From: Methyloceanibacter sp.
Lineage (GTDB): Bacteria; Pseudomonadota; Alphaproteobacteria; Rhizobiales; Methyloligellaceae
Length of the DNA: 64,000 nucleotides
Assembly (NCBI GenBank): GCA_041500805.1
Contig: JBGQMX010000002.1
Location: 7,640 to 71,639 of the forward strand
Direction of reading: 5' to 3'
The translations under genes and the position numbers were made by a program. Shown in pieces: positions 5,201 to 61,537 of the stretch. The notes beneath the pieces are model-generated. The model searched no databases, was not told where the DNA came from, and worked only from the letters and a program-made list of their open reading frames with translations. Position 1 is the stretch's first letter. Each line of letters opens with the position of its first letter.

Positions 5201-5946
5201 TGGCTGCCTCCGATCTGGCTGATCTCGCTCGCGTTGGCATGCTCCGACTTGTCGCGCTTGGAGATGGTCGGTTCGCCCTTCACATACTTGTCCCACACCA
5301 CGTCGCGGCGCTCGCCAGGACGCGGCGTCTCGCCACGCGGCTCGATCAGGTCCTGCGGATTGGCGACCACGACGGCGAGATTGCGCTGGGTGGCGCAGCC
5401 CATGTTGGGCCAGGGCATGTTCTGGGGGTCGCGCGAGATATTCTCGGACCAGTCCGGGCAATCGGGGGGCACGGCGACATATTGGAGATAAGAGATCCTG
5501 AGCGGCGCGGCAGGATCCCCGCTGGCGAAATAGGGCTCGAGCGTCACCGCAGCCGGGTCGATGCCCGCCCGGCGCATGGCTTTGCGCACCTCGTCATAGG
5601 CGCGCATGGCCGCCCTCTCATTGGCGCCGCCGGAGGGCGCCTTGATCAGCAGCCTGTCTGTGCTTTGCGCCTTGTAGTCCCGAAGGAAGCCATAGAGCTG
5701 GCCCTTCTGCGAGGGGTTGAGCCCCGAGGCGCCGCGATAGACGGCAAGGTCGAGGGTCGCCTCGCCCTGCCTCACGGCAATCGGATGCCGCTCATTCGGA
5801 TTGGCGAGCGTGAAGGGGGCCTGAAATCTTGGGCTGCCCTTCAAGCAACCGCCGACCGAGGTTCCGGCCATGAGAACGGCAAGGAGCGTGAGAGCGGACC
5901 GTGCGGCGCGAGCGAGGACGCGCGACCCTTGAAGCGCTGATGCCAT
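5197..5946 (-). CDS. cpaD: Pilus assembly protein CpaD (probable lipoprotein)
   Basis: Hydrophobic leader ending VGGC; ERHPIAV and NMGCATQRNLAVVVANPQDL motifs; sits between cpaC and cpaE. Confidence 0.9.
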   Translation of the reverse strand: MASALQGSRVLARAARSALTLLAVLMAGTSVGGCLKGSPRFQAPFTLANPNERHPIAVRQGEATLDLAVYRGASGLNPSQKGQLYGFLRDYKAQSTDRLLIKAPSGGANERAAMRAYDEVRKAMRRAGIDPAAVTLEPYFASGDPAAPLRISYLQYVAVPPDCPDWSENISRDPQNMPWPNMGCATQRNLAVVVANPQDLIEPRGETPRPGERRDVVWDKYVKGEPTISKRDKSEHANASEISQIGGSQ

Positions 5947-5961
5947 GATGCTGCTCTCCCC

Positions 5962-7584
5962 CTACTCGACAATAAAGCCAACGTCGCCATCGAAGCGGCC
6001 AACCGGGGCACGCTCAGGATCGCGCCCGTAAATGCGGTTCATTTGCCCGAGCAAGTCCGAGTTCACGTCGGACGCCCAGCCAAAGCCGTCGTCGGGCTGC
6101 GCGAGCTTCGAGCGGGCGACGGGCTTCACGATATAGGGCGTGACGAGCACGACGAGCTCGGTCTCGTTCTTCAGGTAGTCGCGGCTGCGGAACAGCGCGC
6201 CAAGGACCGGGAGGTTCTTCAGTCCCGGATAACCACTCAGGGCCTGCTTCGACTGATCCGACAGCAGCCCGGCCATGACCAGGGAGCCGCCGCTCGGCAG
6301 CTCGACCACGGTCTCGGCGCGGCGCACCTTAAGGGCTGGGATGGCGATATTCGAGAGGATCACCGCACCCTGATTGCTGAGCTCGCTGACTTCCGTCGAG
6401 ACCTTCAGACTGATGCGGCCCTCCGACATGACGACCGGCGTGAAAGCAAGGCCGATGCCGAATTTCTTGAACTCCACGGAGATGGTGCCGAGCTGCTGGG
6501 CGACCGGGATTGGGAACTCGCCGCCAGCCAGGAAATTGGCCGTCTCGCCGGAGATCGCGGTGAGATTCGGCTCGGCCAGCGTGTGCAGCAGGCCATCCTC
6601 TTCAAGCGCCCGCAGCACGGACTGCACGCGGCTTCCGCCGCTCTGCCATTGACCGCCAAAACCCGCCGTGTTGCCCACGGTTGGATTAAGCGGTGCTCCG
6701 GGAACGGCCGGGAAACCTGCGTCGCTCCCTGCCAGGCCGGCGCCCGACAGAAATGGAGCAAGCACGCCTTTGCCGGCGACGTTGATCGGGAAGGGAAGAT
6801 CGCTGAGCGCGGCGAAGGCGAAACTGCCGGAGCTGACCAGCGCATTGAGGTCAACGCCGAGCTGCTTGACGATGTTGCGCTCCATCTCGACCACGGAGAC
6901 CTTGAGCAGCACCTGCTCGCGGCCCTCCACGGTGAGCATGTTGATGACATTGCTCGGTCCGCCGCCGCCGCCGCTGCCACTGCCCGAGTTGGTGCCGGCG
7001 CTGGAGGAGCTGCTATTGTTGATGGTGACGGCGGCGCCTCCGGCGGCGGCCGTGTTGCCGCCATTGCCGCTCTCGCCCAAGAAGCTCATGACGACCTCGG
7101 AGGCGCGCGTGGAATCGAGAGGGCTCGTGACGGTACCCGAGAGCACGACCCGGTCGCCAACCGTCTGCACCTGAATGTGGGAGCCCGGGAGGAGGCGGTT
7201 GAGGAGATCGCCGACAGCTGCGAGGTCGCGCTCGATGGTGACCTCCAGCGTCACCACCGGCCGGCCGTCCTTATCGGTGAACAGGATGTTGGCTTCTCCC
7301 GTCGCCTTGCCGATCAAATAGGCCCGCGTCGCGGTCTGCAGCACAGCATCGATCTGCCCAGGATTGGAGACCATCACCTCGCGCACCTCGCGCGGCAGCT
7401 CGACGATCATCGACTTGTTCAAGCCGAGCGTGATCTGACGCGTCGTCCCGCTCTCGCCGATGCGCAGGAAGGAGCGATGCTCCAGGTCCCCCGCCTCGAC
7501 CGGCGCGACGGCGCCACCAAGGACGAGGCAAGCGGCGGCAAGCGCGACGAGAGCGGCTAGGCGGTTGAAGGGAGAGCGACGCAT
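5962..7584 (-). CDS. cpaC: Tad secretin CpaC/RcpA
   Basis: Signal peptide, pilus-N domain (LGLNKSMIVELP), BON-like region, secretin motifs LAEPNLTAISGETANFLAGGEFP and ETELVVLVTPYIV; start at ATG 7584. Confidence 0.95.
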   Translation of the reverse strand: MRRSPFNRLAALVALAAACLVLGGAVAPVEAGDLEHRSFLRIGESGTTRQITLGLNKSMIVELPREVREVMVSNPGQIDAVLQTATRAYLIGKATGEANILFTDKDGRPVVTLEVTIERDLAAVGDLLNRLLPGSHIQVQTVGDRVVLSGTVTSPLDSTRASEVVMSFLGESGNGGNTAAAGGAAVTINNSSSSSAGTNSGSGSGGGGGPSNVINMLTVEGREQVLLKVSVVEMERNIVKQLGVDLNALVSSGSFAFAALSDLPFPINVAGKGVLAPFLSGAGLAGSDAGFPAVPGAPLNPTVGNTAGFGGQWQSGGSRVQSVLRALEEDGLLHTLAEPNLTAISGETANFLAGGEFPIPVAQQLGTISVEFKKFGIGLAFTPVVMSEGRISLKVSTEVSELSNQGAVILSNIAIPALKVRRAETVVELPSGGSLVMAGLLSDQSKQALSGYPGLKNLPVLGALFRSRDYLKNETELVVLVTPYIVKPVARSKLAQPDDGFGWASDVNSDLLGQMNRIYGRDPERAPVGRFDGDVGFIVE

Positions 7585-19569: not shown

Positions 19570-20679
19570 TCAACGGACCAGGATGGCGTGATTGTCCCAC
19601 TGAAAGCCGGAAGGCTTCCGGTCCATGGTGCCATTGACGTCGTTGGTGGCAAGCCAGCCCTCGCCGCTTGTCAGCAAGAAGCTCGCGCTGTGATGGGTGG
19701 GTGCAAGCCCGCAGCCATCGTTCAGGTCGCAAGCCCCGAGGTAACGCCTTGCCGCCACGTCCCAATAGGTGATGAGGCCGCCCTTGGGCGCCGAGGCCGC
19801 AACGATGCTGCCGCCGCTATCGGCGGCGACCGAGCCGACATAGTTGCGCAAGCCCGCTTGCGTCTCGCTTCCGGCCTCCACGATCACCGGCGTCTCGCCG
19901 CGGCGGTGAAAGCCGACAAGCGGCGGCGCATCCTGCTCGGGTCCCCGATATTGGCAGCCGAACACGACCGTATCGCCAGCCGCGACAGAGAGATGGCGGA
20001 TCGAGAGCTGATGCAGCTCGGGCGCGAGAATATGCTCCTCGAGGAGGTCGCCGGTCGCGGCATCGACATAGACCAGCGACGGCCGCATGTCGGGCAAGTT
20101 CAGCTCCTCGACGCCTCTATCGGGGTGAGTGCGGATGCCGCCATTGGCGATCACCATGGTGCGGCCGTCGGCAAGGAGCGCGATGTCGTGAGGCTCCATG
20201 CCATAGGCGGAGAACTCGCCGATCTGCCGGTAGCCATCGGTCGCGTCGCGCACGCCGATGACGCCTGCCGCGCGCTCATAGTCGTTCTCGGTGGCATAGA
20301 GCAGTCTGCCGTCGGCGGAGTAGACGCCGTGGCCGAAGAAATGGCGGTCGGGCTTAGAGGCGAACCACACCGGCGGGCGGGTTCCGACCGGGACCGCAAC
20401 GCCGAAGCGGCCGGGGCGCCGGGCAAAGGCGACCCATTGGCTGCCGTCGGGGCTGAGCGCCACGTCGTGGCCACGGCCAGGAAGCTCTATCGCGCGCACA
20501 TCGCCATCGAGGCTGAACAAAGCCGCCGAGTAGGTGCCCCTGTCATCCTTGCGCGCCGCGGCGAAGACTTCGGCGCTGAAAGGTCCGGCGCCCAAGGCGG
20601 CGACCGCATCTCCTGGCAGGGCCAGCATGGCGGCGCTGCTCGCGAGGCTCAAGAGAAAGCTCCTTCGGTCGAGCTGCAT
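19570..20679 (-). CDS. DUF1513-family Tat-exported beta-propeller-like protein
   Basis: MQLDRRSFLL twin-arginine leader; RGHDVA, HFFGHGVYSADGRLLYATEND, ANGGIRTHP, LSIRHL and WDNH motifs. Confidence 0.88.
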   Translation of the reverse strand: MQLDRRSFLLSLASSAAMLALPGDAVAALGAGPFSAEVFAAARKDDRGTYSAALFSLDGDVRAIELPGRGHDVALSPDGSQWVAFARRPGRFGVAVPVGTRPPVWFASKPDRHFFGHGVYSADGRLLYATENDYERAAGVIGVRDATDGYRQIGEFSAYGMEPHDIALLADGRTMVIANGGIRTHPDRGVEELNLPDMRPSLVYVDAATGDLLEEHILAPELHQLSIRHLSVAAGDTVVFGCQYRGPEQDAPPLVGFHRRGETPVIVEAGSETQAGLRNYVGSVAADSGGSIVAASAPKGGLITYWDVAARRYLGACDLNDGCGLAPTHHSASFLLTSGEGWLATNDVNGTMDRKPSGFQWDNHAILVR

Positions 20680-20681
20680 GA

Positions 20682-21734
20682 CTAATCTCCATCCATGGCA
20701 TTGAAACCGAAGGCCAGCCCAGCGCCCCGCGAGATCATGTCGCCAGCGGTTTGGCCCGCGCTTTTCAACGAGACGCGCAAGGCTTCGAGCTTGGCGCGCA
20801 AGCCATCGTTCTTGACGACTTCGGCGATCGGCTTGTTCATCCCGCGCAAGACCTCGATGGCGTGGTCGAGGTCGAACAGGATCGAGTCCTCCACCCCGGG
20901 GGATTCTGCCGCCACCACTTGGGCGAACCCGCCATGGGCGAACAGCGCGCGGACGCCTTCGAGATTGCCGGCGGCGTTGGCGAAGGTGAGTCCGCTCCGC
21001 CAGAAGGCCGCAAGCTTGAGCTTGGCTTCCTCGGGCTTCGCTCCGAGCGGCTTCCCGAGCTTCTGATCGCGCACGAGCTCGATGCCCGAGGCGAAGGCCT
21101 TGAACAGATCGAGGGTCACCTCCTTCGAGGCATGGTAGACGGGATCGGACGGGGTGGGGTCGAGATAGACCTTGGTGAAGGGCGCGGCCTCGCTCCACCC
21201 CTCCACCAGCTCCTTGGCGATGGCGTCGACATTGGCGGCAATGCTCGCGGCGAAGCGGCAGCGGAAGGCACCATCGCCTCCACCTTTGGCGAGGGCGTCC
21301 GCGCCGTCGCCATAAAGCAGCTCTTCGAGCGCGGGCAGGCCCTGCAGCGCCACGCTCTTGGCCGCCAGGCTTTGCGGGGTCGTCACCGTTTCGTCCTTGG
21401 TGGCAAGCACATCGCGAACCTGCTTCAGGCCGAGCCCCTTGGGATCCGGCCAATAGAACAGGCGCTCGTAGCGGCGGTCTTGGGTCACCGGACCGAAGCG
21501 CAAGATCTCGACCTTGCTCCAGGCGCCGACCGAGGCGGCGAAGGCCTCCTCGGCGTCTTTGAGGGCGGCGGAAGAAGGCTGCTGGCACAGGGCTTGGACT
21601 TTGGTGCTGAGGGCGCCCGTCGTTTCGGCAAGTGCTGAATAGCCGGGGCGGATGAAATTGCTAAGGGCCGCGCGCGTGATGCCGGCGTAGTCCGTCTCGG
21701 CGTGGCTGGGAGCGATCCACGTCACCGAGGCCAA
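20682..21734 (-). CDS. Imelysin-family (peptidase M75-like) protein; 5' end uncertain, see findings
   Basis: FGPVTQDRRYERLFYWPD and SVALQGLPALEELLY motifs, GFNAMDGD end. A signal-peptide h-region extends upstream of TTG 21734 with no in-frame ATG. Confidence 0.82.
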   Translation of the reverse strand: MASVTWIAPSHAETDYAGITRAALSNFIRPGYSALAETTGALSTKVQALCQQPSSAALKDAEEAFAASVGAWSKVEILRFGPVTQDRRYERLFYWPDPKGLGLKQVRDVLATKDETVTTPQSLAAKSVALQGLPALEELLYGDGADALAKGGGDGAFRCRFAASIAANVDAIAKELVEGWSEAAPFTKVYLDPTPSDPVYHASKEVTLDLFKAFASGIELVRDQKLGKPLGAKPEEAKLKLAAFWRSGLTFANAAGNLEGVRALFAHGGFAQVVAAESPGVEDSILFDLDHAIEVLRGMNKPIAEVVKNDGLRAKLEALRVSLKSAGQTAGDMISRGAGLAFGFNAMDGD

Positions 21735-21770
21735 TACGAGTGCAATCGAGAGGCTCTTGGATGCGGTCCC

Positions 21771-21920
21771 ACCCTCACCCGCCGACCAGCCTGCGGCTGC
21801 TCGGCACCCTCTCCCATCAAGGGAGAGGGGCTGGAGCTTGCGGCTCGCTCCGTTCCCCTCTCCCTCGTGGGAGAGGGTGGCTTGGACCTACGAACCGTGG
21901 GTCCAAGCCGGGTGAGGGGG
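21771..21920. repeat. Cruciform CCCTCTCCC/GGGAGAGGG palindromic element
   Basis: Outer CCCTCACCC/GGGTGAGGG arms; two CCCTCTCCC-loop-GGGAGAGGG hairpins (21807-21829, 21856-21877); extra GGCTTGGACC/GGTCCAAGCC hairpin. Confidence 0.88.
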
Positions 21921-21938
21921 TGACTGGTCAAATGAACC

Positions 21939-23519
21939 TCACAGCGAGCTCACGAAGGCGATCAGGGCGTCGCGGTCGGCCTTCGAGAGCTTGGTGAAGG
22001 CATCGCGCGGGCCTTGCGCTTCCCCGCCATGCCAGAGAATGGCCTCGGTCAAGCTCCGCGCCCGCCCGTCATGCAGAAACAGCGTGTGCCCGCTCACGAT
22101 CTCGGTCAGCCCCACGCCCCAGAGCGGAGGCGTGCGCCACTCATTCCCGCTCGCCTCGCCCTCGGGGCGGTTGTCGGCAAGGCCCTCGCCCATGTCGTGC
22201 AGCAGCATATCGGTATAGGGATAGATGAGCTGATGCGACAAACGCGGCTGGCCGGCCACCTCGCCGGTCACGAATTTCGGCTTGTGGCAGCTTGCGCAGC
22301 CGATCCTGTAGAACAGCTCCTTGCCCTTCAGCACCTCGGGGTCGTCGGGCTTCCGCCGCGCCGGCACGGCGAGGTTCTGCGAATAGAACGCGACCAGCTT
22401 GAACAGGTCATCGCCCACCTCGACATTCTGATATTTCGGCGAGTCGCCGCTCGGCGCGTCGAGGCAGTCCTTCTCCTTGTCAGTGCAGTCGCCCGATCCA
22501 TGCGGGATCATGGTCGTGGACAGGCCGATATCGCCGTTGAAGGCCTCCGCCGCCTGTTGCGCGATGGTCGGCACGCCCGCCTTCCAGCCGAAGCGGCCGA
22601 GCATCACCTTGCCGTGCTCGCGCGACCACACGCGGTTCGGCTTGCCGGAGATGCCGTCCTTGTCGGCGTCGTCGGGATCGGCGTTGCTGAGGATCTGCTC
22701 CTCGGGCACGGCTTCGAGCAGACCGAGGCCGATCATCGGCGGGGCCACGCGCGGTGAGAGCATAATGTCGGGGCTCGTCGGACCGTAGGCGAGGTCGGTC
22801 AAGGCGTAGCTCGGCGTGCGCAAAGACACGCTCTCGCCGCCGGCGAGCTTCACCTTGTGCTCCTTGTAGACGATCTTCAGCTGCCCCTCGGGCTTGAAAC
22901 CCTGGATCGAGAAATTCTGCAGCTGGCCGCCATAGGTCGGATCGGGGATCGAGTTCACGCTATGGGCCTCGAGCTTCGCCTTCTCGTCGTCGGTTGCGGC
23001 GGGGACCGAGAGGCGGACCAGCATCGAGCCTGAATCGTCGGGGATGTCCGACGAGAGCGGAGGATGGCCTCGGCCGTCCTTCAAATGGCAGTTCTGGCAG
23101 GCGCGGGAGTTGAACAGAGGCCCGAGCCCGTCAGAGGCGTCGGTGGAGGACGGCGCTGAGACCCAGTTCTTGCGGAAGATGCCGTTGCCGATCTTGAAGT
23201 CGAGCTCGCGCATGAAGTCCATGTTGCCGGACGAGAGGGAGAAGGCATTGGCGTTGTCGACGCTGCCGCGGGAGGTGGCGCCGCCGCCGGGCTTGGCCTC
23301 GCCCTCTTCCAGCTTGGTGAAATCGGTGGTGGGCGGGAGCACGCTCTCAATCGCCGCCTCAGCCTCGGCTCCATAAGTCTGCCAGCTGCCGACCAGCAGC
23401 GGCAGAGCGGCGCCGAAGGCAATCGCGCCGGCAAGCCGGGCACGGCGTGCCTGCTTCAGCGATGCTTCCTTGGGCGACTCTGCGGCGCGATGGCGGGACC
23501 TGGAATGGGGTGTGTGCAC
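21939..23519 (-). CDS. Di-heme c-type oxidoreductase-family protein (DUF1111-like)
   Basis: Two heme motifs (CQNCH, CASCH); DGLGPLFN, GRFGWKA, WRTPPLWGVG and LHDGRAR...EAILWHGGEA motifs; GTG 23519 with AAGGA RBS. Confidence 0.9.
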   Translation of the reverse strand: MHTPHSRSRHRAAESPKEASLKQARRARLAGAIAFGAALPLLVGSWQTYGAEAEAAIESVLPPTTDFTKLEEGEAKPGGGATSRGSVDNANAFSLSSGNMDFMRELDFKIGNGIFRKNWVSAPSSTDASDGLGPLFNSRACQNCHLKDGRGHPPLSSDIPDDSGSMLVRLSVPAATDDEKAKLEAHSVNSIPDPTYGGQLQNFSIQGFKPEGQLKIVYKEHKVKLAGGESVSLRTPSYALTDLAYGPTSPDIMLSPRVAPPMIGLGLLEAVPEEQILSNADPDDADKDGISGKPNRVWSREHGKVMLGRFGWKAGVPTIAQQAAEAFNGDIGLSTTMIPHGSGDCTDKEKDCLDAPSGDSPKYQNVEVGDDLFKLVAFYSQNLAVPARRKPDDPEVLKGKELFYRIGCASCHKPKFVTGEVAGQPRLSHQLIYPYTDMLLHDMGEGLADNRPEGEASGNEWRTPPLWGVGLTEIVSGHTLFLHDGRARSLTEAILWHGGEAQGPRDAFTKLSKADRDALIAFVSSL

Positions 23520-23529
23520 TCGTCCTTCG

Positions 23530-24963
23530 TCAGAAACTGATGCTGGTGCGCGCGCCCACCACGGCAGCATTCTCGACCGCGCCGTTGCCGTCGTCATTGG
23601 GCACGTTGGCGCCGGGCTGGAAGAAGTATTGGAAATCCGGCTGCAACGTCCAGCCAGGCTTGATTTGATAGGTGTAGCAGATCTCGATCAGCGCCTCGTA
23701 ATTGCGCGCGACCGGCTGATCAAGATCGATATCTAAACCATGCGCCTCGTCGGAGATGCCGGTATAGGCGAAGCCGATGGCGAGCGCATCGGCGGGGCGC
23801 CCAGGGATCATGCCGGTGAAGGTGACGCCGCCATCGGCATAAAAATCGACGACGTTGCGGTCGGATGGCGCGCCGATGACACGGCCGAAAATGCCGACCC
23901 CCACCGGGTCCTTGCTGCCAGGCACGCGCCAGACCAGCTGATCGATGATGCCGTAGAAGCCCCAATCGTTGTCGAGCGGACGGCCCGGATTGCCGGTCAC
24001 GGCGATGGGCGCGCTGCGGGAATCGAAGCGCAGGTGCTCGAAGGTACCGAAATGATTCCACCCGCCGAGCTTCAGCGTGCCAGGGAGGACCTCTTGTTGA
24101 TTGTACTTATAGTCGCCTTCGACCATCAGCAGCGGAGGCGAGTCGAGCCGGAAGTCGAGCCCATCGTTGTTGCACTTCTGCGGGTCGCCGGTGCAGTTGG
24201 GCGGCGCCGAATCGCCGTTATAGACGCCGATCAGAAGCGCAAGCTTGTCAGTCGGATTGATCGCGACGCGCACGCCAGGCGTGGCCAACGGATAGGCCGG
24301 ACCGCCACTTGGCAGGTCGGCGGCGATGATGGTCGGCCAACCCCAGGTGCCATTCAGGAACCAGCCGCCGCCCTGGCTGATGATGAAGTCGGCGTCGGCG
24401 CCAAGCTGCCCGAACTTAATGGCGAGCTTGTCATCGTACAGGTGCTGTTCGAACCAAAGTTCGAACAGGCGGGTGGCGTCCGTCGCCTCGAGATTGCTCA
24501 CCGGCATCAGGCTGAGGATATTGGCGGCGGTGATGCCGTTGCCGTGAATCTGGAAGCCATCGACGTGGAAGCAGAGGCCCTTCCACAGGCCGAGCTTCTG
24601 CATGTCGGCATTGATGTGAAGCTCGAGCACGCCGTCATATTCGACGCCCTGCTTGAAGCCGCCCCAATTGCCGAAGGACTCGCCGTAATAGGTGCCGCCC
24701 ACGCCGATGCCGCCCTTGGCAAGGGCCTGGCGCACACCGCCTGGGTCCATCTTGAAGGCTGCGTCGTCTGGAATTCCGCTATCGGTCACGGCGCAATTGG
24801 CGCTCGCCGCCGTGGGAGCTGCCCAGAGCGAAGCGGCCGTGGAGACGGCGCCGAGGGCGCGCAACAGGCTTGCGCCCCATGCCGGGCCGCGCCCGCCAGA
24901 GCAACGGCTTGAAGAAGATCGCCGTGTTGCAAGATCGTCCGGCGTGATTCGCCTGCCAGTCAC
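23530..24963 (-). CDS. OprB-family outer-membrane porin
   Basis: Signal-like leader; RLFELWFEQ, IKFGQLGADADF, GGPAYPLATPGVR and LQPDFQY motifs; C-terminal aromatic beta-signal (GARTSISF). Confidence 0.9.
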   Translation of the reverse strand: MTGRRITPDDLATRRSSSSRCSGGRGPAWGASLLRALGAVSTAASLWAAPTAASANCAVTDSGIPDDAAFKMDPGGVRQALAKGGIGVGGTYYGESFGNWGGFKQGVEYDGVLELHINADMQKLGLWKGLCFHVDGFQIHGNGITAANILSLMPVSNLEATDATRLFELWFEQHLYDDKLAIKFGQLGADADFIISQGGGWFLNGTWGWPTIIAADLPSGGPAYPLATPGVRVAINPTDKLALLIGVYNGDSAPPNCTGDPQKCNNDGLDFRLDSPPLLMVEGDYKYNQQEVLPGTLKLGGWNHFGTFEHLRFDSRSAPIAVTGNPGRPLDNDWGFYGIIDQLVWRVPGSKDPVGVGIFGRVIGAPSDRNVVDFYADGGVTFTGMIPGRPADALAIGFAYTGISDEAHGLDIDLDQPVARNYEALIEICYTYQIKPGWTLQPDFQYFFQPGANVPNDDGNGAVENAAVVGARTSISF

Positions 24964-25011
24964 GATTGAAGCCCCCCAAGGCTTTGCTTCAGTTCAGTTT
25001 CGTAGCATTTT

Positions 25012-25026
25012 TGTTATGTTATAACA
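25012..25026. promoter_or_regulatory. Zur-type operator (perfect 6-3-6 inverted repeat)
   Basis: TGTTAT-GTT-ATAACA, about 50 nt upstream of the porin start, in an AT-rich patch. Confidence 0.7.
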
Positions 25027-25050
25027 CATGCCTTAACCCTGCTCCCCGCG

Positions 25051-26385
25051 TCAATGCGGTTCTCCACCTCCATCGCTCGCGGCTTTGCTCTCCTGTGGCA
25101 CCTTCGCCGGATTGTCGAGGCTGTCGGAGCCTTCGAACTGGATCGCCTTGAGATCGAGGGTAGCGACGGCGCGCTCGAGCGACTTCGTCTGGTCGAGAAG
25201 GGAATCGATGGCGTGCTGCACGACAGCGTTGCCCGCGTCGTTCCCCTCGCCGATCATCTGGTCGTAGGACTCGGTGGTCAGCGCGCGGAGATAGAGCGTA
25301 TTCATCGCACCCATGGTCGCGTCGAGCTTCGCGCGTATCTCGGCATCGACCTCAGGCGCCTTCGCCTTCACGAGATCGGACACGCTCGGGCCCTGCACCA
25401 GAGACCCGTCGGCACGGCGATAGCGGCCGATATAGACGTTACGGATGCCGAGCGCGTCGAAGAAGTGCGAGGCATGCGTGTTGTCGGAGAAGCAGTCATG
25501 CTCCTCCTCGGGATCGTGGATCATGAGGCCGAGCTTCATGCGCTCGCCGGCGAGCTCGCCGTAAGAGAGGCTGCCGAGCCCGGTCATGATGGCGACGAGC
25601 CCATCCTGGTCTTTGCCGTCCATCAGCTTCTTGCGCGCCGCGCCGTCGGGGCCCCACTGGGCCGCCATAAAGGCGAGATCGTCGACGAGAAGATCGGTGA
25701 CGGTGCTGAGATATTGAGCGCGCCGCGCGCAATTCCCGTTGGTGCATTTCTTGGCGTCGTAATCGCTTGCCGGGCGATGGCCGTTGCCGGGACCGGTGCC
25801 GTTCAGGTCTTGGCCCCACAGCAGAAACTCGACGGCGTGGTAGCCGGTGGCGACATTGGCCTCCACGCCTCCGGCCTCTTGCAGCTGGCCGGCGAGGAGC
25901 GCCTTGGTGATCTTGGTGGCGTTGAGCTTCTTGCCGCCGATAGTCAGGGAAGGGTTGGCGATGACATTGGCGACATAAAGCTCGTTCTCAGGGGAGTCAG
26001 CCCCATAGGACGGGGCGACATAGTCGATCAGCCCCTCATCCAGCGGCCAGGAGTTCACCCTGTCTTGCCAGTCGTCGACGATGGCGTTGCCGAAGCGGTA
26101 GGCTTCGGTCTGCATGTAGGGGATGCGGGCGGCGATCCAGGCGGCGCGGGCGGAGCGAAGATTGTCCTCGGTCGGCTTGGCGAGGACGGCGTCGACCGCG
26201 AGCTTCAGCGTTCTGGCGGTATCGAGGGAGTCCGAGTAGCCGGCCTCGGCCATGTCGACGTAGGTCTTCAGCACATCCTTGGGTGTGGGCTCGGCCACGG
26301 CGGGCGAGATCCCAACTCCAGTCGCAAGGCCTAGGCAGAGAGTGGCAGCGGCGAACGGCCGGGCCATCGTCAATCGTCCAAACAT
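25051..26385 (-). CDS. Imelysin-family protein (IrpA/iron-regulated protein A-like)
   Basis: Sec signal (PAVA); VNSWPLDEGLIDYV, TGYHAVEFLLWGQD and EEEHDCFSDNTH motifs; start at ATG 26385. Confidence 0.92.
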   Translation of the reverse strand: MFGRLTMARPFAAATLCLGLATGVGISPAVAEPTPKDVLKTYVDMAEAGYSDSLDTARTLKLAVDAVLAKPTEDNLRSARAAWIAARIPYMQTEAYRFGNAIVDDWQDRVNSWPLDEGLIDYVAPSYGADSPENELYVANVIANPSLTIGGKKLNATKITKALLAGQLQEAGGVEANVATGYHAVEFLLWGQDLNGTGPGNGHRPASDYDAKKCTNGNCARRAQYLSTVTDLLVDDLAFMAAQWGPDGAARKKLMDGKDQDGLVAIMTGLGSLSYGELAGERMKLGLMIHDPEEEHDCFSDNTHASHFFDALGIRNVYIGRYRRADGSLVQGPSVSDLVKAKAPEVDAEIRAKLDATMGAMNTLYLRALTTESYDQMIGEGNDAGNAVVQHAIDSLLDQTKSLERAVATLDLKAIQFEGSDSLDNPAKVPQESKAASDGGGEPH

Positions 26386-26629
26386 CGGCACCCCTTCGCC
26401 GGGGCTCCCGCCCGGTCTTCGCCAGCGAAGCCGCCAGCAGGCGACAGGAATGCGGCGGCCCTCGGGCCGAAACCGTCGGACCGCCGCAAGTTGAGATGAG
26501 GAAGCGTCCGCTTGGTTGGCCTTGGACGCTTCAGGCCTCCGGGCTGGGCAGCCGGATGCCTTGTCAAAGCCATAGCGCAAACAGTAACATGCACGTAGTG
26601 AACTCTTTTCAGCGGAATTGTTGCATACC

Positions 26630-27550
26630 ATGCACTTAAAGGAAGTCGATGCCAATCTGCTCGTGACGCTGGACGCGCTGCTCGTGGACGCAAGCGTGAC
26701 CCGCGCCGCCGAGCGGCTGGGGAGAAGCGCCTCGGCCATCAGCCATGCGCTGGCCAAGCTCCGCGAAATCTTCGCCGACGAGCTCTTCGTCCGCGCGGGT
26801 CAGCGTCTCGTGCCGACCGCCAAGGCCCTGGAGCTTGCGCCCACCGTCCATGTGATCCTGGCCGGCATGGAAAGCCTGCTCAGGCCGAGCCAGCCGTTCG
26901 ACGCATCGCTTGCCATGCGCGACTTCGCCATGGCCGCGAGCGAGGCGGGCGAGCTCATTCTGGTGCAGCCGCTTCGCCAGCGCCTGCAACATCTTGCACC
27001 GAGCGTGCATGTCGACTGGATGCCGTCCCATCGCGACGAGAGTTCCGACGCGCTCCGCCACGGCCGTTGCCATTTCGTGATCGACATCGAGGGAGCGAGC
27101 GTTCCGGCGGCTGACATCCGCGTGCTCAAGCTGTTCGACGACCGGCTCGCCACGCTCGGCCGCCCGGGGCATCCTTTCGCTCAGCGGAAGCCCAAGGCCG
27201 CCGCCTTCGCCGCCGCTGACCATATCGCGGTGAATTCGCTTCCCGCCATCGAGCTGATCGACCGCGAGCTTGCCGCGGGAAAGCTCAGCTGCAGCATCGT
27301 CTCGCGCGTTTCCTCGGTACTGGTCGGCCTTTTGCTCGCGCTCAACAGCGACGCGCTGCTCACGCTGCCGGCGTCCCTGGCGCTGATCATCGAGAAGCAG
27401 TTCGGGCTTGTCCGCATTTTCCAGCCGTTCGGCCCGATCGCTTTCCCGTTAAGGCTGCTCTGGCATTCAAGCTATGACCGCGACGAGTGCCATGAATGGG
27501 TGCGCGGCGAGCTGGTCGGTCTCGCGCGGGAGATCGAAAGCGCCGCTTGA
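26630..27550 (+). CDS. LysR-family transcriptional regulator (NodD/LeuO/MexT-like subgroup)
   Basis: DANLLVTLDALLVDASVTRAAERLGRSASAISHALAKLR HTH; LFVRAGQRLVPT; divergent from the imelysin cluster. Confidence 0.92.
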   Translation: MHLKEVDANLLVTLDALLVDASVTRAAERLGRSASAISHALAKLREIFADELFVRAGQRLVPTAKALELAPTVHVILAGMESLLRPSQPFDASLAMRDFAMAASEAGELILVQPLRQRLQHLAPSVHVDWMPSHRDESSDALRHGRCHFVIDIEGASVPAADIRVLKLFDDRLATLGRPGHPFAQRKPKAAAFAAADHIAVNSLPAIELIDRELAAGKLSCSIVSRVSSVLVGLLLALNSDALLTLPASLALIIEKQFGLVRIFQPFGPIAFPLRLLWHSSYDRDECHEWVRGELVGLAREIESAA

Positions 27551-57626: not shown

Positions 57627-58553
57627 ATGGCGCGGCGGCGCAAAGGCTTACCCGTTCATGGCTGGCTCATCTTCGACAAGCCGCAAGGCATGACCTCGAC
57701 GCAGGCCGTGTCGCGGGTGAAGCGGCTTTACGAGGCGGCGAAGGCGGGACATGCCGGCACGCTCGATCCGCTCGCCACTGGCGTGCTGCCGATCGCGCTC
57801 GGCGAAGCGACCAAGACCGTGCCGTTCGTGGTCGAGGGGAGCAAGGAGTACCGCTTCACGGTCCGCTTCGGCGCCGAGACCGATACCGACGACGCCGAGG
57901 GCTCTGTCGTGGCGACGAGCGATGCGCGGCCGACCCGCGCCGAGATCGAGGCGGCCCTTCCCCGCTTCACCGGCGAGATTGTCCAGGTGCCGCCGCGCTT
58001 CTCGGCGCTCAAGGTCGATGGCGCCCGCGCCTACGATCTCGCCCGCGAGAACGAGGAGTTCGAGCTCGCGCCGCGCCGCGTGTCGATTTCGCGGCTGGAG
58101 CTCATCGCCCATCCCGACCCGGACCATGGCGTGATCGAGGCCAGTTGCGGCAAGGGCACCTATGTGCGGGCGCTGGCGCGCGATCTCGGCCGGGAGCTCG
58201 GCTCGCTCGGCCATGTCGAGGCCTTACGGCGCACCCGCGTCGGCTCTTTTGGCGAGGAGCGCGCGATTTCACTCGCCACGCTCGAGGCGCTTTCCGAGGG
58301 AGCCGCAGGCCGGGAGGCGCTGGCCGGCGTGCTGCTGCCCGTCGAGACGGCGCTCCACGACATCCCGGCCCTTGTCGTCAACGATTCCGATGCGGCTAGG
58401 CTCCGGCGGGGCCAGCCGGTATTATTGCGGGGACGGGACGCCCCAATTTTCAGTGGAACCGTCTACGCCACGTCGCGTGGCACGCTGGTGGCCCTCGGCG
58501 AGGTGAGCGAGGGGGAGCTCAAGCCCCGACGCATCTTCAATCTGCCGTGCTGA
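57627..58553 (+). CDS. truB: tRNA pseudouridine(55) synthase
   Basis: DKPQGMTS, KAGHAGTLDPLATGVL, VPPRFSA and CGKGTYVR motifs. Confidence 0.97.
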   Translation: MARRRKGLPVHGWLIFDKPQGMTSTQAVSRVKRLYEAAKAGHAGTLDPLATGVLPIALGEATKTVPFVVEGSKEYRFTVRFGAETDTDDAEGSVVATSDARPTRAEIEAALPRFTGEIVQVPPRFSALKVDGARAYDLARENEEFELAPRRVSISRLELIAHPDPDHGVIEASCGKGTYVRALARDLGRELGSLGHVEALRRTRVGSFGEERAISLATLEALSEGAAGREALAGVLLPVETALHDIPALVVNDSDAARLRRGQPVLLRGRDAPIFSGTVYATSRGTLVALGEVSEGELKPRRIFNLPC

Positions 58554-58579
58554 AGCACGCGCATTCTAGGGAGGACCGA

Positions 58580-58861
58580 ATGACCAGGGTCTTGATTGCC
58601 GCAATAGCGTTGCTCTTTTGCGTAAACTTGGCGGCAGCGGCCACAGGGGACCGTTGCAAGGTGACCGACCCGACGGGCACGCCGCTCAACGTGCGCAACG
58701 GCCCCAATGGGAAAATCACCGGCACGCTCGCCAACGGCACGCTCGTCTCAATCACGGAATACGCGGACGATGCGAACGGGAAACCATGGGTGGATGTTGC
58801 CGACTACAAGACGAAGAAGATAATCGGCTGGGTTTTCCGCGAGTTCGTCTCCTGCTTCTGA
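58580..58861 (+). CDS. Small secreted bacterial SH3-like domain protein
   Basis: GGAGG RBS; Sec signal; PLNVRNGPNG...W...GWVFREFVSC, with Cys near both ends of the mature chain. Confidence 0.78.
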   Translation: MTRVLIAAIALLFCVNLAAAATGDRCKVTDPTGTPLNVRNGPNGKITGTLANGTLVSITEYADDANGKPWVDVADYKTKKIIGWVFREFVSCF

Positions 58862-58949
58862 CGCGCGGCCCGGCCCAGTAAATTCCGCTGGCCTCGCGCC
58901 AATAATCCCTATATTGCAGCGATTGCGCGGGCGCCGTCTTAACGGCTCG

Positions 58950-59025
58950 CACGCGTATTGAACCGACCGCGCTGGACGACATCCCGGCCCGGCCCTGACA
59001 GACCCCTAACAGCAAGGATCATCCG
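58950..59025 (+). promoter_or_regulatory. rpsO 5' leader, candidate S15 autoregulatory RNA
   Basis: Contains GCTGGACGACATCCCGGC, which I recall as conserved upstream of alphaproteobacterial rpsO; boundaries approximate. Confidence 0.5.
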
Positions 59026-59295
59026 ATGTCGATCAGCGCTGAGCGCAAGCAAGAGCTCATCAAGGAATATGCGACCAAGTCTGGCGATACCGGCTCGCCA
59101 GAGGTGCAGGTCGCGATCCTGACCGAGCGGATTACCAATCTCACCGAGCATTTCAAGACGCACGGCAAGGACAATCATTCGCGCCGGGGGCTGCTCAAAA
59201 TGGTCAGCCAGAGGCGCCGGCTGCTCGATTACGTCAAGTCCACCGACGCGGACCGTTACCAGAAGCTCATCAACCGGTTAGGCATCCGCCGGTGA
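59026..59295 (+). CDS. rpsO: 30S ribosomal protein S15
   Basis: [29 protein letters not shown] and LGIRR motifs. Confidence 0.98.
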
Positions 59296-59413
59296 CAGCC
59301 ACCGTCAAGGCGAGCCATCGCGCGGTCGAGCTTGCGAATTACCGAACGGGCCAGCCCTTCGCCGTCAGGCGACTGGAGCGGCCTTACCCTTCCCCAAGCA
59401 TTGGGACACCAAC

Positions 59414-61537
59414 ATGTTTCAGAAACACACCGTAGAAATCGAATGGGCGGGACGCCCGCTCAAGCTCGAGACCGGCCGCATCGCGCGCCAGTCCGATGGC
59501 GCCGTGCTTGCCACCTATGGCGGGACCAGCGTCCTTGCCACCGCCGTCGCCGCCAAGGAGCCGAGGGCCGGCATCGACTTCTTCCCGCTGACCGTGAACT
59601 ATCAGGAGAAGACCTTCGCCGCGGGCAAGATCCCCGGCGGCTATTTCAAGCGCGAAGGGCGCCCGACCGAGAAGGAAACCCTGACCTCGCGCCTGATCGA
59701 CCGGCCGATCCGGCCGCTATTCGCCTCAGGCTTCAAGAACGAGACGCAAGTCATCGCCACCGTGCTCTCCCACGACATGGAGAATGATCCCGACGTCGTG
59801 GCGTTGATCGCGGCCTCCGCCGCGCTCACCATCTCCGGCATTCCCTTCATGGGGCCGATCGCCGCCGCGCGCGTCGGCTATATCGACGGCAAACATGTGC
59901 TGAACCCGATGATCGACGAAATGCGGGAAAGCACGCTTGACCTCGTCGTGGCCGGCACTGCCGATGCCGTGCTGATGGTCGAATCGGAAGCCAAGGAATT
60001 GGCCGAGGACGTCATGCTCGGCGCCGTGATGTTCGGCCACAAGCACTTCCAGCCGGTGCTCAACGCCATCGTCAAGCTCGCCGAGCGCGCCGCCAAGGAG
60101 CCCTGGGAGATAAAAGTCCTGGAAAGTGCCGAAGTTCTCGTCGGCAAGGTGCGCGCGGTGGCCGAGCAGGATTTGCGCGAGGCCTACACCATCGCCGGCA
60201 AGCACGAGCGCCGCGATCGCGTGGCAGCGATCAAAGACAAGGCGCTTACCGCGCTGGTCCCGGCGGATGACGACGGAACGATGGCCGCGAAAGTGGCCAG
60301 CGCCTTCAAGGAGGCGGAGAAAGACGTCGTGCGCTCAAGCATCCTCAATACGAAGAAGCGCATCGACGGGCGCGACCTGTCAACGGTCAGACCGATCTCT
60401 TGCGAGGTCGGCATTCTTCCCCGCACCCATGGCAGCGCTCTCTTCACCCGCGGCGAGACCCAGGCGCTCGCCGTCGCCACGCTCGGCACCGGCGAGGACG
60501 AGCAATATGTCGATGCCCTGCAGGGAACCTACAAAGAGACCTTCATGCTGCATTACAACTTCCCGCCCTACTCGGTCGGCGAGGTTGGCCGCATGTCCTC
60601 TCCCGGAAGGCGCGAGATCGGTCACGGCAAGCTCGCCTGGCGGGCCATCCACCCCGTGTTGCCGGACCGCGAGCAGTTTCCCTATACCATCCGCATCGTG
60701 TCGGAGATCACCGAGTCGAACGGCTCCTCCTCCATGGCCACGGTGTGCGGCTCCTCGCTCGCCATGATGGACGCCGGCATTCCGCTCAAGCGGTCGGTCG
60801 CGGGCATCGCCATGGGCCTGATCAAGGAGGATCAGCGCTTCGCCGTGCTGTCCGACATCCTCGGCGACGAGGACCACCTCGGCGACATGGACTTCAAGGT
60901 CGCCGGCACGTCGGAGGGCGTGACCTCGCTGCAGATGGACATCAAGATCACCGGCATCACCGAGGAGATCATGAAGGTCGCGCTCGACCAGGCGCGTGAC
61001 GGCCGCCTGCATATCCTCGGCGAGATGGACAAGGCGCTTAACACGGCGCGGCCAGAGCTTGGCGAATATGCGCCGCGCATCGAGACGATCCACATCCCGG
61101 TCGACAAGATTAGGGAAGTGATCGGCTCGGGCGGCTCGGTGATCCGCGAGATCGTCGCGGAATCGGGCGCCAAGATCGACATCTCCGACGATGGGACCGT
61201 CAAGATCGCCTCGGCCAATGCCGAGTCGATCCGCGCCGCGATCAATCGCATCAAGAGCATTACCTCCGAGCCGGAGGTCGGCGAGATCTATCAGGGCAAG
61301 GTCGTCAAGGTGATGGAGTTCGGGGCTTTCGTGAACTTCTTCGGCCCGAAGGACGGCCTCGTGCATATCTCGCAGCTCGCGGACGGACGGCCCAAGGCCG
61401 TCACCGACGTCGTCAAGGAAGGCGACTCGGTGTGGGTGAAGCTGCTCGGCTTCGACGACCGCGGCAAGGTCAGGCTGTCGATGAAGGTGGTCGATCAGAA
61501 GACCGGACACGAGCTCGAGAAGGCCAGCGCCGAATAA
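59414..61537 (+). CDS. pnp: Polyribonucleotide nucleotidyltransferase
   Basis: [37 protein letters not shown] and GDMDFKVAG motifs; KH and S1 domains. Confidence 0.98.

Follow-up and report, generated by a model that had tools for sequence, protein, structure and literature searches.

The genes for an EfeO-like imelysin, a DUF1111 protein, a second imelysin and a DUF1513 protein occur in this arrangement in PA4370-73 and VC1264-67, and the module is regulated by Fur in Pseudomonas and Vibrio (Xu et al. 2011, PMC3143127). In transposon screens its genes show cofitness, and its function is unsettled (Price et al., bioRxiv 10.1101/072470). An OprB-type barrel, MnoP of Bradyrhizobium japonicum, is an outer-membrane channel for Mn2+ and is a 675-amino-acid fusion of an N-terminal OMP_b-brl domain and a C-terminal OprB domain (PMC4827864). 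Here we analysed a stretch of 64,000 nucleotides (nt), called the window below, from a Methyloceanibacter sp. (GenBank assembly GCA_041500805.1, contig JBGQMX010000002.1, positions 7,640 to 71,639 of the forward strand) in which the gene for an OprB-family porin lies inside such a module. We propose, with a probability of roughly 0.6, that this porin is a regulated Zn2+/Co2+ outer-membrane channel that was inserted into the module and that feeds AztABC. The evidence throughout is comparative.

A porin gene inside a known four-gene module

The porin gene (23530-24963, minus strand) matches PF04966 over profile positions 1-372 of 372 (E 1.4e-80). It follows the gene for imelysin-1 (25051-26385, minus strand; PF09375, E 3e-80), a protein of the PA4370/IcmP type with a Sec signal peptide and the GxHxxE motif in the form GYHAVE; the open reading frame spans 25051-26757 and the likely start is the ATG at 26385. 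Downstream of the porin are the genes for the di-haem protein DHOR/DUF1111 (21939-23519, minus strand; PF06537, E 9e-98; CQNCH and CASCH), the open reading frame of which spans 21939-23597 with a likely GTG start at 23519, for imelysin-2 of the PA4372/IPPA type (20682-21734, minus strand; PF09375, E 3e-45; GLPALE as GxxxxE), and for a DUF1513 protein that carries an N-terminal RRSFL motif for twin-arginine translocation (Tat) (19570-20679, minus strand; PF07433, E 2e-107). A LysR-family regulator gene (26618-27550, plus strand; Pfam HTH_1 and LysR_substrate) is divergent from the cluster, which is flanked by AsmA and alpha-2-macroglobulin genes. The initial annotation had described five co-oriented genes with a divergent LysR and had noted no TonB-dependent receptor or ATP-binding cassette (ABC) permease among them. 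Both descriptions were confirmed at the locus, all five genes being on the minus strand and each family being recovered with Pfam.

Imelysin-1 and the porin are separated by a spacer of 88 nt, and DHOR and imelysin-2 by one of 204 nt. The gap from the porin to DHOR is 10 nt, with an AAGGA Shine-Dalgarno sequence (10-14 nt in relatives), and that from imelysin-2 to DUF1513 is 2 nt. A terminator scan inside the cluster found nothing convincing. Apart from the porin, the cluster has the composition of the known module, its four families being in their usual order and both imelysin subtypes being present. What is new is the porin insertion.

To describe the distribution of this insertion we used three samples, in which loci carry L numbers and genomes G numbers. 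A scan of public genomes gave a first set of 14 porin loci, several from genomes named Methyloceanibacter sp. The order-level sample consisted of 120 other genomes, 66 of them with a DHOR homologue, from which 40 loci were fetched, 39 of these being outside the window's genus. The family-level sample consisted of 36 genomes of the window's own genus, six of two sister genera and 18 of six other genera, and 40 porin loci from it were classified. Genomes of relatives are non-independent observations. Of these 39 loci, 35 have the canonical four-gene order, the remaining four being partial and likewise porin-less, and none of the 39 has an OprB homologue within ~6 kb. The porin-containing form was found at the 14 public-genome loci and at L073, from the only member of the genus in the order sample. 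In the family sample, 30 of the 36 genus members carry a porin homologue, as do five of six genomes from two sister genera, compared with none of 18 from six other genera. Among the family-sample loci, 23 have the porin in the module, two have the porin alone, two have it adjoining zinc-uptake genes and 13 have it elsewhere. The divergent LysR next to imelysin-1 is kept in all in-module loci, and a single further family of the order also has it (L076, 74% identity). At L133 and L135 the whole module has been lost and only lysR - porin - asmA is left.

Taken together, the distribution in the three samples shows that the porin insertion is real, heritable and restricted to a Methyloceanibacter-like genus and its close kin. 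The synteny that the initial annotation had proposed to check is present in about 25 genomes of this group and is absent elsewhere in the genomes sampled. The idea that the porin is a general part of the module did not hold up, given the porin-less order-wide loci, the persistence of the porin without the module and its copies in other contexts.

Six loci (L013, L073, L121, L122, L146 and L148) have lost imelysin-2 and DUF1513 and retain imelysin-1 - porin - DHOR - asmA. In the family tree of the porins, in-module, azt-linked and dispersed paralogues are interleaved, and genome G575 has both kinds. A simple move of the porin from an azt operon into the module is weakened by this tree and by G575.

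Control elements, neighbours and structure of the porin

The imelysin-1/porin spacer contains a palindrome, TGTTAT-AAC-ATAACA, at 25012-25026, which is 49 nt before the porin start codon. The core GTTAT-N3-ATAAC has one perfect copy in the 3.06-Mb genome, compared with 0.33 expected by composition, and four copies with one mismatch. One of these four is ~10 nt upstream of a gene for a 135-amino-acid Fur-family protein, the best NCBIfam match of which is Zur, and this gene is followed by aztA, aztB and aztC; the genome has three Fur paralogues. In five relatives the variant GTTATGTTATATC is directly before zur, and the motif was found upstream of zur or zur-aztABC in the window's own genome and at L015, L045, L047, L051 and L127. 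A second box at L045 lies between zur and a znuA-like gene, and at L049 a perfect box lies in front of a COG0523 GTPase gene, next to which are znuB/C-like genes. When the imelysin-1/porin spacers were aligned, only the box and the Shine-Dalgarno/start region were conserved and the rest was unalignable. The box is perfect in 10 of the 14 loci of the first set, and at an eleventh it differs by one mismatch; among the 25 at-locus porins of the family sample, seven have it with at most one mismatch, one further porin has it with two mismatches and six carry a cobalamin riboswitch in its place. It matches the proteobacterial Zur core GTTA-N5-TAAC that was used for Caulobacter (PMC4176598), and it resembles the Zur boxes of Paracoccus that were validated by electrophoretic mobility shift assay (PMC5387054). 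Because of its uniqueness in the genome, its copies at zinc genes in relatives, its footprint in the spacer and its match to the literature, we predict that the box is a Zur operator. This motif is common to the porin and zur-aztABC, and co-regulation of the two is predicted.

In an unrelated proteobacterial bin, GTTATAACGTAAC is found at L023:1380-1392, ~140 nt upstream of a distant porin homologue (36% identity). To judge from this motif, the L023 porin is possibly another Zur-controlled member.

In sister species the box is replaced by another element. At L010 the spacer contains a cobalamin riboswitch in its place (RF00174, 111 bits; L010:3254-3464), and a riboswitch of this kind lies on the same strand ~190 nt ahead of five further at-locus porins (L123:7502-7727, L133:5635-5845, L136:5689-5899, L142:7560-7769 and L144:7579-7789). 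The scores range from 79 to 124 bits, with 79 bits at L133, where the locus is the porin-only remnant, and 87.9-124 bits at the other five including L010. Both kinds of element, the zinc-repressor site and the B12 riboswitch, typically control genes for the uptake of divalent metals. Bearers of the box and of the riboswitch are interleaved on the porin tree (L134 beside L142/L144; L124 beside L133), which indicates that the control element has been exchanged repeatedly. The literature that we searched contained no case of B12 control of an OprB-type porin or of downstream DHOR, imelysin or DUF1513 genes.

Metal genes also adjoin homologues of the porin. Porins of the same clade as the module porins are next to zinc-uptake genes in three genomes. 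L015 has the order zur - aztA - aztB - aztC - porin, and zur is preceded by a variant of the box; the Zur encoded there is 72% identical to that of the window genome, and the porin is inside the module-porin clade, which has a support of 100/100. At L127 the porin and zur-aztABC are divergently oriented and share a box that lies between them, and at L145 the porin is followed directly by a ZnuA-family gene. Among distant homologues with 33-43% identity, NikR is directly upstream at two loci (L018:7374-7832 and L020:7209-7706), CbiM is directly downstream at L024 (9405-10091), and Nramp/MntH is directly upstream at L059 of the same order (5303-6730). All of these NikR, CbiM and Nramp/MntH genes are on the strand of the porin, and they suggest that the family has nickel-, cobalt- and manganese-dedicated members. 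CopD or TonB neighbours were seen at L061 and L057. Sugar transport or catabolic genes were found beside the porin neither at the window locus nor at ~90 homologous loci.

A different set of neighbours contains the DyP peroxidase. L065 has a cupredoxin gene upstream of the porin and a DyP gene downstream, and DyP alone is found at L017, L019, L060, L063 and L069. At these six loci, which are from other Alphaproteobacteria, the porin is followed ~1 kb later by the DyP gene, the product of which has an N-terminal extension of ~250 amino acids. This recurrent arrangement, with cupredoxin in L065, is EfeB/EfeO-like and includes a porin.

The porin itself is a single 477-amino-acid OprB domain and the sole OprB in the genome. 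Its start is the GTG at 24963, which is homologous to an ATG in relatives behind a conserved GGGGG Shine-Dalgarno sequence; a long signal region follows, and the mature N-terminus is near NCAVTD. An AlphaFold2 model (predicted local distance difference test (pLDDT) score 88) has 16 strands by DSSP, and the top Foldseek match is OprB of P. putida (4GEY; E 6e-32, template modelling (TM) score 0.84, 22% identity); phmmer against the solved sugar porin gave E 3e-9. At 78 positions the porin clade has conserved residues that set it apart from other homologues, among them five Cys, four His and seven Asp, and it has a short N-terminal extension that contains Cys. The other porins in the genome are two Porin_4 proteins and several small OMP_b-brl barrels. 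Because other general porins are present, a specialised role of the OprB channel is plausible.

The two tandem Porin_4-family genes, of ~515 amino acids each, are on contig C1 of genome G000 (57875-60559). This pair probably provides the general diffusion porins of the organism.

Other features of the operon

The 5' leader of imelysin-1 (26386-26568, minus strand) is ~180 nt long and contains three stems followed by the invariant sequence CUUCCUCAUCUCA(A/G)CCUUGCG. With RNAalifold, an alignment of 14 leader loci gave 28 pairs, of which 10 have compensatory double changes. The leader has no match in Rfam. We rejected the idea that it is a widespread riboswitch on this ground and because a covariance model (R1) matched the same genus only among 40 order-wide loci; it is a candidate for a lineage-specific cis-regulatory RNA. 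No Fur or Irr iron box was recognised at the operon head, where no systematic scan for iron boxes was made, and what is seen there instead is a conserved promoter region on the LysR side together with the structured leader.

The initial annotation had described five exported proteins. All five are present, and the description stands in this respect; it falls short for imelysin-2, since there is no ATG, GTG or TTG before the signal-peptide core of this protein in the window assembly. A palindromic REP (repetitive extragenic palindromic)-like repeat, seen from the sequence and the reading frames at 21780-21900 between the DHOR stop and imelysin-2, sits in the spacer region (21735-21945) at the disrupted 5' end. 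Imelysin-2 may be unexported, decayed or mis-assembled in this genome. In several relatives imelysin-2 starts at or overlaps the DHOR stop and has a signal peptide, with gaps of 0-11 nt, and four loci (L004, L005, L007 and L011) have inserts of their own at this junction, some of which are translated in frame.

The DUF1513 protein was modelled with AlphaFold2 as a seven-bladed beta-propeller (pLDDT 80, predicted TM score 0.81) from a shallow alignment in which the homologues found were all close, with 71-89% identity. Foldseek matched it to generic seven-bladed propellers only and no PDB sequence match was found. We also considered whether DUF1513 is an AztD-like zinc chaperone and rejected this, since the genome has no NF038015 match, the PDB gave no match and AztD was not in the top 50 Foldseek matches.

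At L094 (genome G440), which is from another family of the order, a porin-less canonical module is followed directly by a COG0523 gene and a znuA-like/ABC cluster. This COG0523 gene is 82% identical to the Zur-box-linked COG0523 of L049, and L094 may link the module to zinc genes for a second time, independently.

Proposed function and comparison with known systems

In the model that we favour, zinc-loaded Zur would sit on the box when zinc is plentiful and block an internal promoter. Under zinc shortage the channel would be made, and Zn2+ and the similar-sized Co2+ would diffuse into the periplasm. Periplasmic zinc would then be taken up by AztC and AztAB, de-repressed via the same regulator; the inner-membrane step is plausibly supplied by AztABC, the genes of which lie at another place in the genome behind a box of the same type. 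In sister species the channel would be repressed by B12 instead. The channel promoter would also raise DHOR, imelysin-2 and DUF1513, and the 10-nt gap and lack of a terminator mean that these three genes should be co-induced. Imelysin-1 would keep its separate, LysR-linked promoter with the structured leader. Gene content, fold, phyletic distribution, conservation of the motif, its occurrence at zinc genes and the riboswitches are observed directly, and from these comparisons we infer Zur binding, co-transcription and permeation by Zn2+ and Co2+.

Several observations weigh against this model. Control by zinc leaves unexplained why the porin was inserted inside an operon for redox proteins and kept there in about 25 genomes. 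Several in-module porins (L116, L119-L121, L146 and L148) have neither box nor riboswitch, and a sigma-70 scan found no clean promoter match at the Zur box. The Zur of the window genome was assigned from its best NCBIfam match and its context, and its score is below the equivalog cut-off. Unrelated, non-metal neighbours are found at most paralogues in the genus and at many distant homologues. Many of the loci are from metagenome bins with frameshifts; some porins were stitched together out of separate matches before tree building.

Judged from its sequence context, the porin is very probably a channel for metal cations and not a sugar porin. The initial annotation had taken it for a metal channel, and this part is supported by the zur-aztABC neighbours, the Zur box or riboswitch and the metal-gene neighbours of homologues. 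An OprB porin of the ordinary kind, selective for carbohydrates or serving general diffusion, with its position and the palindrome being incidental, would fit the Pfam family name, the fold (TM 0.84 to P. putida OprB) and the many paralogues with unrelated neighbours. However, the identity to that protein is 22% with a phmmer E of 3e-9, sugar genes are lacking nearby, the footprinted box is common to zinc genes and is replaced by riboswitches in sister species, and the genome has other porins. We rejected a sugar porin on gene context and sequence distance and regard this as the least probable of the explanations. Scarcely more probable is a channel for a corrinoid precursor or for a small organic chelate of a metal, the ligand being processed in the periplasm by DHOR, imelysin and DUF1513. 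Cobalamin riboswitches often control genes for corrinoid uptake, riboswitch and Zur box are both upstream of the porin, DHOR, imelysin-2 and DUF1513, and the closest folds to DUF1513 include propeller subunits that partner haem proteins (1JJU_B and 5C2V_B). Against this, cobalamin is large for an OprB-type barrel of 16 strands, genes for chelate biosynthesis are not found nearby and L133 keeps the porin alone with a riboswitch.

The initial annotation had instead combined the porin, both imelysins, DHOR and DUF1513 into one machine that imports a single metal, either iron or a different redox-active one, with the porin as the entry, the imelysins binding the metal and DHOR changing its redox state. 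We consider this unlikely. It would account for the porin-DHOR coupling at 10 nt, kept in the 23 in-module loci of the family sample, and it agrees with the DyP peroxidases and cupredoxin that adjoin homologous porins elsewhere in Alphaproteobacteria in an EfeB/EfeO-like manner, as well as with the Fur regulation (PMC3143127) and co-fitness (bioRxiv 10.1101/072470) of the module in other bacteria. It does not account for 39 modules elsewhere in the order without a porin, for survival of the porin after loss of the module at L133 and L135, or for copies of the same clade that adjoin zur-aztABC, and the control elements are of the Zur-box or B12-riboswitch kind instead of iron boxes. Iron as the metal was not borne out, since these control elements point to zinc and to cobalt/B12. 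Zn2+ is not redox-active, so a change of metal redox state by DHOR does not follow for zinc, the metal indicated by the regulation of the porin.

Within the zinc/cobalt model, the role of the other module genes can be read in two ways. The porin kept without the module (L133 and L135) and the canonical module without a porin favour these genes being passengers. The recurrent pairing of a porin with a periplasmic haem peroxidase, DHOR here and DyP elsewhere, favours a functional tie. A wider version, which seems to us quite unlikely, would be that DHOR, imelysin-2 and DUF1513, along with the channel, came to serve in the response to zinc/cobalt starvation, in which DHOR would oxidatively free Zn or Co from thiol or organic ligands that come in by way of the channel, the imelysin and the propeller would pass the metal to AztC, and OprB-like porins of Alphaproteobacteria would be individually regulated, metal-specific channels for Zn, Co, Ni and Mn.

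Entry of zinc and cobalt through the outer membrane without TonB receptors of the ZnuD type is usually put down to "non-specific porins". If the zinc/cobalt model is true, a channel family whose genes carry Zur boxes or cobalamin riboswitches or adjoin NikR, CbiM or MntH genes would constitute a specific and regulated passive entry, and would extend the single proven case, which is MnoP for manganese. The imelysin/DUF1111/DUF1513 module would gain a new condition under which its role may be sought, zinc or cobalt/B12 limitation, in the genomes where half of the operon sits behind these switches. It would also call for caution in transferring the annotation "carbohydrate-selective porin".

As a comparison, Zur regulons with AztABC(D) or ZnuABC and receptors of the ZnuD/ZnuK type have the same operator type and the same AztABC partner family, and AztD was not found in the window genome. 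The receptors in those systems are energised and TonB-dependent, whereas a passive channel is proposed here. Cyanobacterial OprB-domain porins (Slr1908 for iron, Alr2231 for zinc tolerance) are likewise barrels that are implicated in the passage of transition metals, and mutants in Anabaena OprB-domain porins have altered tolerance to Zn, Mn, Cu and Co (PMC9705863). They differ in having SLH domains (PMC4827864) and belong to another lineage. OprB of Pseudomonas (4GEY/4GF4) is of the same Pfam family with the same 16-stranded fold, whereas the porin in the window has no sugar-uptake context and has the Cys, His and Asp residues of its own clade and the N-terminal Cys extension. With PA4370-73 and VC1264-67 the window cluster shares the families, their order, the GxHxxE/GxxxxE split, the two CxxCH motifs and an exported DUF1513 protein. 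It differs in having a porin after the first gene and an internal Zur box or B12 riboswitch that would replace or add to Fur control.

MnoP resembles the porin of the window in being an OprB-type barrel from the same order and in having a metalloregulator in common with an inner-membrane transporter, which for the window porin is predicted. The regulator of MnoP is reportedly Mur. A further likeness is that the order-mate homologue at L059 is directly behind an Nramp/MntH gene and MnoP is co-regulated with mntH. The two differ in that the window porin is a single 477-amino-acid barrel without the two-barrel fusion, that the metal is Mn for MnoP compared with Zn/Zur or a B12 riboswitch here, and that the gene in the window is embedded in an imelysin/DHOR operon.

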